Shown here: in pieces, positions 13,510 through 20,000 of the stretch | How positions within the stretch are numbered: the first letter of the stretch is position 1 | Layout of the letters: every line of letters begins with the position of its first letter | Assembly (NCBI GenBank): GCA_035650735.1 | Contig: DASRGZ010000206.1 | Coordinates: 45,799 to 65,798, forward strand | DNA: 20,000 nucleotides | From: Chthonomonadaceae bacterium | GTDB taxonomy: Bacteria; Armatimonadota; Chthonomonadetes; Chthonomonadales; Chthonomonadaceae | Direction: 5' to 3' | Translations under genes and position numbers: made by a program | Notes under the pieces: model-generated | Seen by the model: only the letters and a program-made list of their open reading frames with translations | What the model was told of the DNA's origin: nothing | Databases searched by the model: none

Positions 13510-14073
13510 ATGAGCACGGTTTCAAACCTCCCTTCCGGCTCTACACCGCAGAAGAATTGTTCAATCTGCCGAAGGATGGCTATTTATATGAGCTCGTTCG
13601 TGGAGAACTGTGCAGAATGGCCCCACCTAGCGCCAAACATGGAAGCACGACCGCCCGCCTGTTTTCGCGTGCCGGCATTTATATAGAGGATAATGATCTC
13701 GGCGAGGCTTTTACCTCAGAAACCGGCTTTCTGCTCGCGCAGGACCCGGATACCGTTCTGGCGCCCGACTTCGCTTTTATTGCCAAGGAGCGCCTCCCCG
13801 AACCGTTGCCGGACACGTATATTCCTGTTGTCCCCGACCTTGTTCTGGAGACCCGCTCGCACAGCGATACCAGGCGCAGAGTCAACGAGAAAGTAGCGCT
13901 CTGGCCGGAATTTGGAGCCAAAATAGTGTGGGAACTCGATCCACGCAAGCGTGTGCTCACGGTGTACCGTTCGGGTGTCGAGCCGCGCACTTGGCCTTGA
14001 CGACATACTATCCGGCGAGGACGTGCTGCCGGGGTTCTCGCTGCCAATCCGTCGCCTGTTCCGGCAACCCTGA
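13510..14073 (+). pseudogene. Uma2-family (DUF820) PD-(D/E)XK endonuclease-like gene with two frameshifts
   Basis: ATG 13510 with an AGGAGG RBS is out of frame with YTAEELFNLP..YELVRGEL..PDTVLAPDFAFI..PDLVLE..VWELDP. After about 13990 the typical C-terminus LSGEDVLPGFSLPIRRLF is in another frame and ends at TGA 14071-14073. Confidence 0.85.
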
Positions 14074-14153
14074 GAGGAAGGCATGCCCAACCTATCTGTG
14101 TGCAGTGCGAGGCGCTGTTTGCGGAGCCTTTGTTGCCAGGAGTGAGGATTCAA

Positions 14154-14622
14154 ATGACTGCCGAACTCAACAAACTCAAGCCCTCCCTCTGCGCAACGCG
14201 GCGTCCGGAAGTGACAGAAGCCCTCCTTGCGGACATAACGCAGCGTATTGTGGAGGCGTTTCACCCGCATAAGGTCATCCTGTTCGGCTCCTATATCTCT
14301 CAAAGAGAGCCTCCCGAACCTTTTACGCCCGTTTCACCCGCATAAGGTCATCCTGTTCGGCTCCTATGCCTACGGCACGCCGCATAAGGATAGTGACGTA
14401 GACCTGTTCGTTATCATGGACTCCGACGAGTCAACCCACGCTCGCATTGTGAAAGTGACAAAGGTGGCGAAAGTGCCGTTCCTATCGATGGATATTATCG
14501 TGCGGACATCCAAAGAGGTTCAGGAGCGCCTGGCAATAGGCGATTTTTTCGTGATTGAAATTCTGGAAAAGGGTAGGGTTCTGTACGACCGTGACGCTAC
14601 TATTCTGCTAGCTCGCCCTTAA
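14154..14622 (+). pseudogene. Minimal nucleotidyltransferase (MNT, antitoxin-like) disrupted by a 73-bp insertion/duplication
   Basis: Removing one repeat copy plus the insert (73 bp) restores a 131 aa ORF: ..ITQRIVEAFHPHKVILFGSYAYGTPHKDSDVDLFVI..MDIIVRT..EILEKGRVLY (GS..DxD motif). Confidence 0.88.
14257..14367 (+). repeat. Perfect direct repeat (38 bp; 37 bp from GTTTC) flanking a unique 35-36 bp insert, a CRISPR-like unit inside the MNT gene
   Basis: CGTTTCACCCGCATAAGGTCATCCTGTTCGGCTCCTAT at 14257-14294 and 14330-14367, separated by ATCTCTCAAAGAGAGCCTCCCGAACCTTTTACGCC. Confidence 0.92.
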
Positions 14623-14641
14623 TATTCCGCTCTGAGGGAGA

Positions 14642-15454
14642 ATGATGCCCAACTTTATTTGTGTGCAGTGTGGGGTGCAGTTTACGGAGACAGAGAGGCC
14701 GCCGGAGCATTGCCCTATCTGCGCGGACGAGCGGCAGTACATCAACCCGAACGGGCAGGCGTGGACGACTCTGGAAGACTTACGCACCGACCATCGCAGC
14801 GTCTTGCAGGAGCACGAGCCGGGCCTGATGGGGATCGGGACAGAACCGCACTTTGCCATTGGGCAGCGCGCCCTGTTGGTGCAGTCGCCCGGCGGCAACA
14901 TCCTCTGGGACTGCATTAGCCTGATGGACGACGCGGCGGTGGAAGCGGTGCGTGCGCGCGGCGGCCTCTCTGCCATTGCCATCTCGCACCCGCACTTCTA
15001 TGCGGCGATGGTGGAGTGGAGCCGTGCCTTCGGCGGCGTGCCCATCTATCTGCACGCCGCCGACCGGGAGTGGGTCATGCGTTCCGACCCGGCCATCGCC
15101 TATTGGGAGGGCGAGACGCAGGCGCTTGGCGAGGGGCTGACGCTGATCCACTGTGGGGGCCACTTTGCGGGCAGCACGGCGCTGCATTGGGCCGGGGGCG
15201 CGGAAGGACGCGGCGCGCTCCTGACCGGCGATACCCTCCAGGTCGTTGCTGATCGCCGGTACGTCAGCTTTATGTACAGCTATCCGAACCTGATCCCGCT
15301 GCCCGCGCCCGCCATCCGGCGAATCGTGGAGGCCGTCGAGCCGTTTGCCTATGATCGCATCTATGGCGGCTGGTTCCCCAGCGTCGTCTCGGAGGGAGCC
15401 AAAGCCGCCGTCGCGCGCTCGGCGGAGCGTTATCTTCACGCCGTCGGAGGTTAG
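14642..15454 (+). CDS. Metallo-beta-lactamase-fold hydrolase with an N-terminal Zn ribbon
   Basis: ICVQCG..CPICADERQY, FAIGQRALL, NILWDC, IAISHPHFY, YLHAADREW, GGHFAGS, LTGD, FMYSYPN. Confidence 0.88.
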   Translation: MMPNFICVQCGVQFTETERPPEHCPICADERQYINPNGQAWTTLEDLRTDHRSVLQEHEPGLMGIGTEPHFAIGQRALLVQSPGGNILWDCISLMDDAAVEAVRARGGLSAIAISHPHFYAAMVEWSRAFGGVPIYLHAADREWVMRSDPAIAYWEGETQALGEGLTLIHCGGHFAGSTALHWAGGAEGRGALLTGDTLQVVADRRYVSFMYSYPNLIPLPAPAIRRIVEAVEPFAYDRIYGGWFPSVVSEGAKAAVARSAERYLHAVGG

Positions 15455-19866: not shown

Positions 19867-20000
19867 GTGGCAAGGCGGAGGCAGGGGCCCTAACCCTGCC
19901 GACGGCCAGTATTCGCAACCCTTCCACCTTGATGTTGATGTCGCAAGGCGGAGGCAGAGGCCGTAACCCTGCCGACCCTGGCAGTCCGTTGCAGGCCCGA
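19867..20000. CRISPR. Edge of a probable CRISPR array (37-bp repeats, 36-bp spacer), probably continuing beyond the window
   Basis: GTGGCAAGGCGGAGGCAGGGGCCCTAACCCTGCCGAC (19867-19903) and GTCGCAAGGCGGAGGCAGAGGCCGTAACCCTGCCGAC (19940-19976) differ at 3 positions; both have an internal hairpin GGCAG(G/A)G..CCCTGCC. Unique spacer at 19904-19939; a second spacer starts at 19977. Confidence 0.72.

Follow-up and report, generated by a model that had tools for sequence, protein, structure and literature searches.

The window analysed here comprises the final 20 kb of contig C206 of a Chthonomonadaceae (Armatimonadota) metagenome-assembled genome (MAG; 6.52 Mb in 224 contigs, 63% G+C; hereafter G000). 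Within it lies an MNT (nucleotidyltransferase) gene that is broken in two, with its 5′ part at 14154..14294 and its 3′ part at 14368..14622, both on the + strand. At the break we find exactly two copies of a 38-nt direct repeat, at 14257..14294 and 14330..14367 (+ strand), which are 100% identical, are spaced 73 nt from start to start and enclose 35 nt (14295..14329) that are unrelated to the flanks. An initial annotation of this stretch had interpreted the arrangement as the outcome of off-target spacer integration by the adaptation machinery of a CRISPR system, and it is this proposition that we examine.

Because the bases beyond both repeat ends differ (G at 14256 versus C at 14329; A at 14295 versus G at 14368), the only freedom in placing the boundaries lies between a 38+35 and a 37+36 division; the first copy, or 'pseudo-repeat', is 37 nt long if 14257 is left out, and the spacer-like insert is 36 nt long if 14330 is counted with it. 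Neither repeat nor insert has a further copy in the 6.52-Mb genome at up to six mismatches. The frame opened by the ATG at 14154 reads ...VEAFHPHKVILFGSY, enters the insert and meets a stop at 14345, providing 47 codons to the end of the first copy. The second frame is offset by 73 = 3 × 24 + 1 nt and hence lies out of frame with the first; it reads FHPHKVILFGSYAYGTPHKDSDVD... and continues to the stop at 14620-14622, providing 84 codons. The 47 and 84 residues add up to 131, compared with 128-129 in intact orthologues, and both parts overlap on FHPHKVILFGSY when aligned to intact relatives, which carry FHPHKVILFGSY once. The 5′ part aligns to residues 1-50 of L005:1389-1775 (= P0003) and of P0002, and the 3′ part matches PF01909 (NTP_transf_2; 47 bits, cut-off 21, E 3.4e-12) and PF18765 (Polbeta; 43.8 bits, cut-off 26.9). 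No gene for a HEPN partner adjoins the MNT gene. Thus, the structural description in the initial annotation, namely a perfect duplication around an unrelated insert, a gain of 73 bp, a frameshift and a 131-residue product divided in two, was correct on every measurable point.

The same structure is found outside the assembly. The MNT stretch is present in eight public sequencing runs from five studies, and Logan contigs were inspected for X1, X2, X6 and X7, which represent four studies (soil, 2017; mine, 2024). All four runs contain a piece that passes from the first copy through the insert into the second copy at the depth of the flanks. In X1 this bridging piece (95 nt, 14265-14359) has a depth of 15.1, compared with 13.6 and 13.2 for the flanks, while the 38-mer repeat node reaches 24.7, approximately twice the flank depth. 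An empty allele is separable by depth alone because the 38-nt repeat exceeds the 31-mer word of these contigs. A protein search retrieved the broken 124-residue product from three contigs at 100% identity; the protein collection contained no intact MNT allele of the same species, the next match being at 80%. The recent origin inferred in the initial annotation is not borne out, given that the filled allele is the only one seen in both the 2017 and the 2024 samples and that two identical 38-nt copies make a weak clock.

Comparison with close relatives reveals what the site looks like when empty. When a 2-kb query around the MNT site was searched in 40 relatives, G001, a member of the same genus, matched on its contig C460 in two pieces that overlap by 37 nt; G001 therefore carries the duplicated stretch once, and does so inside an intact MNT gene of 129 codons. 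The insert is also represented in G001, at another locus. Window positions 14296-14330 recur with 35/35 identity at G001:C483:21617-21651 (E 4.7e-10). The match falls in intergenic DNA, with a galU-like gene on one side and a gene of the DCC family on the other, and no duplication flanks it there; the trinucleotide next to this protospacer is GCC, or CCC if the match is shifted by one. In G000 the galU-like and DCC-family genes are on separate contigs, and the genome is without that intergenic stretch. Run X6 holds the insert 35-mer in a G001-type context as well, and X1 does not. The donor-type DNA is therefore that of a close relative sharing the habitat, or of a locus that the G000 lineage has since lost. 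An exact search for the 35-nt insert in viral contigs gave 0 matches, and an Rfam scan of the G001 donor region returned only microRNA families, far below their gathering scores.

The MNT structure is not a solitary occurrence. A scan of G000, with the native array left out, looked for identical direct repeats that are 20 nt or longer, lie 30-400 nt apart and enclose an insert. It returned 257 repeat pairs, of which 136 fall at periods of 60-79 nt; over the rest of the 30-400 nt range most 5-nt bins contain 0-4 pairs, and one, at 275-279, spikes at 13. Restricting the geometry to periods of 58-82, duplications of 24-42 and inserts of 28-46 nt leaves 95 perfect two-copy events, with duplications of 24-40 nt and unique inserts of 32-44 nt. 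Duplication length peaks at 30 nt (28 events, with 13 at 29 nt and 12 at 31 nt), a main mode that fits the resident CRISPR repeat described below, and a second group at 35-40 nt comprises 17 events, the MNT event included. Inserts of 36-38 nt account for 51 of the 95. A wider census, which allowed up to four mismatches and dropped multi-copy sequences, yielded 143 candidates, of which 60 are perfect; some of the imperfect ones may be false positives. In this census, duplication lengths are bimodal (28-31 and 36-38 nt) and all 143 inserts differ from each other.

Further structure is apparent within the family. Eight perfect events have a period of 61 nt (28-29 + 32-33) and hairpin-bearing duplications; scars or mini-arrays of this period with an inner hairpin of the CCCC..GGGG type lie at C1:10060, C65:114, C65:6648, C67:9736, C109:6231, C126:9900 and C135:1248. 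We take the period-61 geometry to be that of type I-E arrays. Profiles for type I-E cas2 and cas7 found nothing in G000, in a search of uncertain sensitivity whose control matched in only one of 14 named genomes. Some sites carry three copies around two different inserts, for example C224:43547 and C109:6231. When the insert is removed in silico, 41 of the 95 sites fall in long open frames compared with 82.5% of 2000 random positions; in a genome of 63% G+C this is a crude test, and it suggests that insertions into coding sequence are depleted among the scars. The scars also tend to pair within 0.3-1.4 kb (C55:2060/2426, C135:1248/1594, C40:37687/38944 and C10:5082/6485), which hints at local hot spots.

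A related genome, G012, does not show this excess. Placed in the same family and 99% complete, it possesses a Cas1b by a large related array as well as a second cas1; 800 kb of its sequence contain one pair within the geometry, itself part of a tandem repeat, compared with 11.7 expected at the density of G000 (Poisson P ~1e-4). In 363 kb of G001 there are two pairs, or 5.5 per Mb compared with 14.6 per Mb in G000; a search for cas1 in G001 (89% complete) found none. The scar excess is thus a trait of the G000 lineage. Loss of HU/IHF-type host factors was considered as a cause and set aside: the DNABII family (PF00216) was detected in one of 25 genomes of the order, in a search whose control matched in 9 of 14 named genomes, and since the clean control G012 is without it, just as G000 is, its absence does not explain why G000 stands out. 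The lineage may use another nucleoid protein.

G000 encodes one cas1 and one cas2, both on contig C93 and adjoining an array, with cas4 nearby. The Cas1 is typed as Cas1b (431 bits, cut-off 304), and the locus is assigned to type I-B by NCBIfam (Cas1b, Cas2, Cas4, Cas3, Cas5b, Cas7); type III-A csm genes lie in the interval from cas4 to cas1. The array consists of 80 identical 29-nt repeats at periods of 65-67 nt, and among its 79 spacers lengths of 36 (34 spacers), 37 (24) and 38 nt (14) dominate, with two of 35 nt; the MNT insert, at 35-36 nt, falls inside this range. G000, G040 and G012 all have the array behind cas2 or cas1, with genes and array on one strand, an order that places the leader on the cas side. 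A query with the array against 60 relatives, made for its protospacer-adjacent motif, returned only repeat-driven matches from array to array. The array's far end is bordered by an IS21-family element (C93 ~236-2488; istA, istB), which comes within 13 nt of the first repeat. Disturbance of the leader by this insertion sequence, with a consequent loss of fidelity, was set aside because the leader is on the cas2 side and the element at the opposite end. The array may have been cut at the IS21 end, as all 80 repeats are identical. Beyond IS21, in the 1-2501 region of C93, is a short open frame that presumably resembles a piece of the RNA polymerase β′ subunit and has no Pfam hit. Seven solitary copies of the native 29-nt repeat (1-5 mismatches) lie far from the array, at C19:48197, C89:7863, C121:514, C152:3580, C3:8092, C162:11576 and C166:40669.

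Several properties of the inserts and of their target sites resemble those of spacers and CRISPR repeats. For nine of the 95 inserts, but for no native spacer among the 79, G000 contains a second locus that matches over the full length or nearly so; the nine include a 32-of-37 case at C174:14153 and leave out copies of the same scar. Among the six cases of the period-65-69 class with clear boundaries, CCG stands directly 5′ of the match in four, GCC in the fifth and GGA in the sixth, and in the CCG-flanked cases the duplication tends to begin with GT on the strand that has CCG upstream. Four of the nine self-derived inserts come from contig C15 (2024-2055, 4215-4251, 17136-17172 and 32865-32903), which at 43.5 kb represents 0.7% of the genome. 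A plasmid or phage nature of C15 was set aside, its genes being ordinary chromosomal ones; prespacers might be supplied preferentially from this contig, for instance if it is a terminus region or one prone to breaks, or it could preserve a trace of primed acquisition. It also bears a BsoBI-type restriction-modification pair.

At the target sites, AC at the end or GT at the start of the duplication, with one base of slack, occurs in 37 of the 95 events compared with 17.4% of random windows, and 18 of the 95, where 8.5 are expected, have GAAC or AACC at a distance of 7-14 nt from an end (p = 0.0017), three control words showing no excess. Among words within 12 nt of the ends, TTTAA (4 versus 0.21) and CTTTA, which is how the native repeat starts on the transcribed strand, are over-represented in the short class (n=67), and GCAAC is over-represented in the long class (n=28; 6/28 versus 0.47 expected; p = 6e-6, or ~0.006 after correction for 1024 words).

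No repeat of the form GTTGCAA...GAAAC was found in G000; the same pattern in 60 relatives identified true arrays of 37-nt repeats in three genomes of the family (G042, G047 and G051), where they adjoin cas1-cas2, and in one further genome of the order (G059). The repeats of the same-family systems have the ends GTTGCAAC... and ...TGAAAC, which match both the MNT site and the end motif of the long class. In G042 the array has periods of 72-74 nt, which compares well with 37 + 36 = 73 at the MNT site, and follows the type I genes cas3, cas7, cas1, cas2 and cas4. In G047 it is preceded by cas2, a group-II-intron-like reverse transcriptase and a short cas1 (C49:681131-683449; L175 17132-19450), so that this same family also possesses a reverse-transcriptase-linked adaptation module. 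Read on the minus strand in the 37-nt register, the MNT duplication agrees with the G042/G047 repeats at 12 of 18 end positions, placing it in the top 0.1% of 5000 random 37-mers, and with the whole G047 repeat at 20 of 37; against the ends of the native repeat it scores 9/18 (top 9% of random). As a class, long duplications average 9.0 against the 37-nt repeat ends compared with 7.0-7.3 for random windows (z ~7); the native repeat, which has similar ends, gives them high scores as well.

On this evidence we consider it very probable that the MNT structure is an ectopic spacer integration by Cas1-Cas2 that inactivated the gene. This was the central proposal of the initial annotation, and it is now more strongly supported, by the empty site in G001, the protospacer matching at 35/35 positions, the 95 like events, the CCG-flanked self-protospacers and the presence of cas1, cas2 and cas4. 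In such an event Cas1-Cas2, probably together with Cas4, would insert a prespacer of ~36 nt at a pseudo-repeat in the MNT coding sequence instead of at the leader-repeat junction. Two staggered strand-transfer reactions 37 bp apart would leave gaps, and their repair would duplicate those 37 bp on either side of the new spacer; the resulting gain of 73 bp would shift the reading frame and so inactivate the gene. The CRISPR adaptation machinery thus appears to act as a natural mutagen in G000.

A number of observations weigh against this interpretation, or limit how far it reaches. Catalysis of the MNT event by Cas1-Cas2 is inferred, not observed. The sole array and cas1 in G000 use 29-nt repeats, 8 nt shorter than the MNT duplication, and neither a 37-nt-repeat array nor matching cas genes were found in the assembly, where Cas proteins of the G042/G047 type matched only the type I-B locus at 26-34% identity; the cas1 and cas2 with matching repeat length that the initial annotation had set as a test of its own reading were accordingly not found in this assembly, and 37-nt-repeat systems that do match occur only in same-family genomes. 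The flank of the MNT protospacer is GCC or CCC and not the CCG of the self-matching inserts. An empty site is established for one event, because only one of the seven loci compared with G001 had an alignable orthologue; at the other six, which hold nine events, there was neither an alignable orthologue at any site nor an insert match. The run-contig check covers the MNT locus alone among the scars. Integration polarity is unexplained, since the orientation of the native repeat, as deduced from the cas2-array order in G000, G040 and G012, puts CCG on the unexpected side of the spacer. Finally, the motif tests (AC/GT ends, GAAC/AACC, end words and repeat-end scoring) were chosen after the sequences had been viewed.

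Which integrase was responsible is a separate matter. We see an even chance that the MNT event was made by a 37-nt-repeat module of the same-family kind that was lost or was not binned into the MAG, and we lean to such a module because the ends of the MNT site and its 37+36 geometry fit those repeats. The same mechanism could instead have been driven by Cas1-Cas2-Cas4 of the resident type I-B locus, its register lengthened at a site whose anchor motifs are 8 bp further apart than in the 29-nt repeat. This module is the only cas1-cas2 found in the assembly. Like the native repeat, the MNT site read on the minus strand shows CGAAC at positions 9-13 and GAAAC at its end, and long-class inserts, with a median of ~36 nt, approach native spacers in length. 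Moreover, in the type I-B system of Haloarcula, duplication size is reported to shift with the spacing of mid-repeat motifs (PMC4872114). The shifts given there span 29-33 bp, however, and not 37; duplication lengths in G000 fall into two modes with no smooth tail between 28-31 and 36-38 nt, the long class has its own end motif, GCAAC, and the MNT ends fit the native repeat less closely than they do the 37-nt repeats (9/18 versus 12/18). We therefore regard the resident module as a possible author of the event, albeit a doubtful one.

Explanations that dispense with CRISPR adaptation fare considerably worse. Repair of a staggered double-strand break, or template switching during replication, might capture a stray 35-nt filler, and it is in keeping with this that the donor-type sequence is chromosomal DNA of a close relative present in the same sample. 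Such a process is improbable, for it leaves unexplained why ~95 events should share two narrow duplication lengths and spacer-length inserts, as well as the CCG flank, the repeat-like ends and the second spacers at the same site, and a related genome, G012, has no such excess. Target duplications are a hallmark of transposition and G000 is rich in dispersed repeats, so that a transposable element that duplicates an unusually long target, and of which only a footprint or a miniature form is present, might also be envisaged. This is very improbable: the MNT insert occurs nowhere else in the genome, lacks terminal inverted repeats apart from an internal hairpin of 5 bp and matches plain intergenic DNA of G001 that is without a flanking duplication, while no two of the 143 census inserts are the same once the multi-copy cases have been dropped. 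An artefact of assembly or binning, which the fragmentation of the MAG into 224 contigs might bring to mind, can be virtually dismissed given bridging contigs at flank depth in four runs of four studies and a broken 124-residue product recorded from three contigs. Ectopic integration by Cas1-Cas2 hence remains our preferred explanation for the MNT structure.

The phenomenon itself has a counterpart at the bench. Nivala, Shipman and Church reportedly described in 2018 how off-target integration gives rise to neo-CRISPR loci in E. coli over-producing Cas1-Cas2. The likeness to G000 is close: a repeat-length target duplication surrounds a spacer-length insert at a non-CRISPR site, further spacers are possible and genes can be damaged. 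The differences are equally clear, as the E. coli loci resulted from laboratory over-expression of a type I-E module whereas the events in G000, of which there are ~100, are natural, occur in three geometries (periods ~61, 65-69 and 72-75) and include one with a verified empty site and a donor match. Whether off-target integration is common in nature is called unclear in one citing preprint, which mentions 'circumstantial evidence' in two other species (10.1101/148544).

Studies in vitro point the same way. Off-target sites of Pyrococcus furiosus Cas1-Cas2 are reported to share sequence features with CRISPR repeats (PMC6698737), and the enzyme of Thermotoga profunda is described as integrating off-target in the absence of HU, with proteins of the HU/IHF type promoting fidelity (PMC13769266). 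Both resemble G000 in that off-target sites are repeat-like and the integrase alone is of limited fidelity, and both differ in that the events occurred on plasmids in vitro, whereas those of G000 are fixed chromosomal scars. For the type I-B system of Haloarcula hispanica, duplication is reported to begin at a fixed junction and its length to be set by an AACCC motif ~10 bp in and a GTGGG anchor (PMC4872114). The native repeat of G000 has AACCA and GTGGA in places matching those given there (C93, minus strand), and the MNT site has GAAC ~10 nt in; the aberrant lengths reported for H. hispanica differ from G000 in spreading over 29-33 bp, where G000 has a discrete second mode at 36-38 bp.

The MNT event is, therefore, a natural member of a phenomenon known from the bench, in a genome where its scale is unreported. 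Full-text literature searching, which reaches few subscription journals, brought up no natural genome described as carrying scars of this kind in number. Concerning the genome as a whole, we cautiously favor the view that more than one integrase has carried out off-target CRISPR adaptation on a large scale and that G000 is its natural record, comprising ~95-140 neo-CRISPR scars in geometries of ~28+33, 30+37 and 37+36, two of which have no matching cas module in the assembly. If this is true, the scars would be what lost CRISPR systems have left behind as fossils; they would also cause insertion mutations and gene loss to a degree that can be measured, and would be raw material for new arrays, several of them already holding two spacers. 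The MNT case itself provides a natural, fixed gene knock-out with both an empty site and a donor match, and its ~100 sister events constitute a data set on how integrases acting outside arrays choose their targets and with what polarity they insert. The set further allows the mutational cost of keeping an adaptation module to be estimated, offers a test of how new arrays arise and might serve to recognise CRISPR systems no longer present in a lineage.

The window contains a second structure with a 73-nt period, at 19867-19976, which the initial annotation had read as a CRISPR array and had used in support of its interpretation of the MNT gene. It is a composite dispersed repeat of the repetitive extragenic palindromic (REP) type and not CRISPR. 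The 37-nt unit has 183 copies in G000 (up to six mismatches) on both strands of more than 100 contigs; most are single, and 33 lie within ~200 nt of a contig end. No cas genes are near the window pair, which consists of two 37-nt hairpin units, differing at three positions, around a 36-nt middle. Units 73 nt apart with this same middle recur at 10 loci, often at contig ends (for example C40:5613, C126:31228 and C131:39085). Because the structure is a dispersed composite repeat, its equal period is no evidence for the proposed origin of the MNT duplication. Its 37+36+37 layout does equal the geometry of the long class, and it is tempting to speculate that the composite might have begun as an ectopic integration into a REP unit and then spread.

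The surroundings of the MNT gene bear signs of an older rearrangement. The ribosome-binding-site region and first ~15 codons of the downstream gene, which encodes a protein of metallo-beta-lactamase fold (14632-14689), recur at ~80% likeness upstream of the MNT gene (14070-14126), the two copies being spaced 562-563 nt apart. It looks as if the MNT gene was set into the start of the metallo-beta-lactamase-fold gene at some older time. In G001 the MNT gene lies elsewhere, between a DUF1501 gene and a Uma2 gene.

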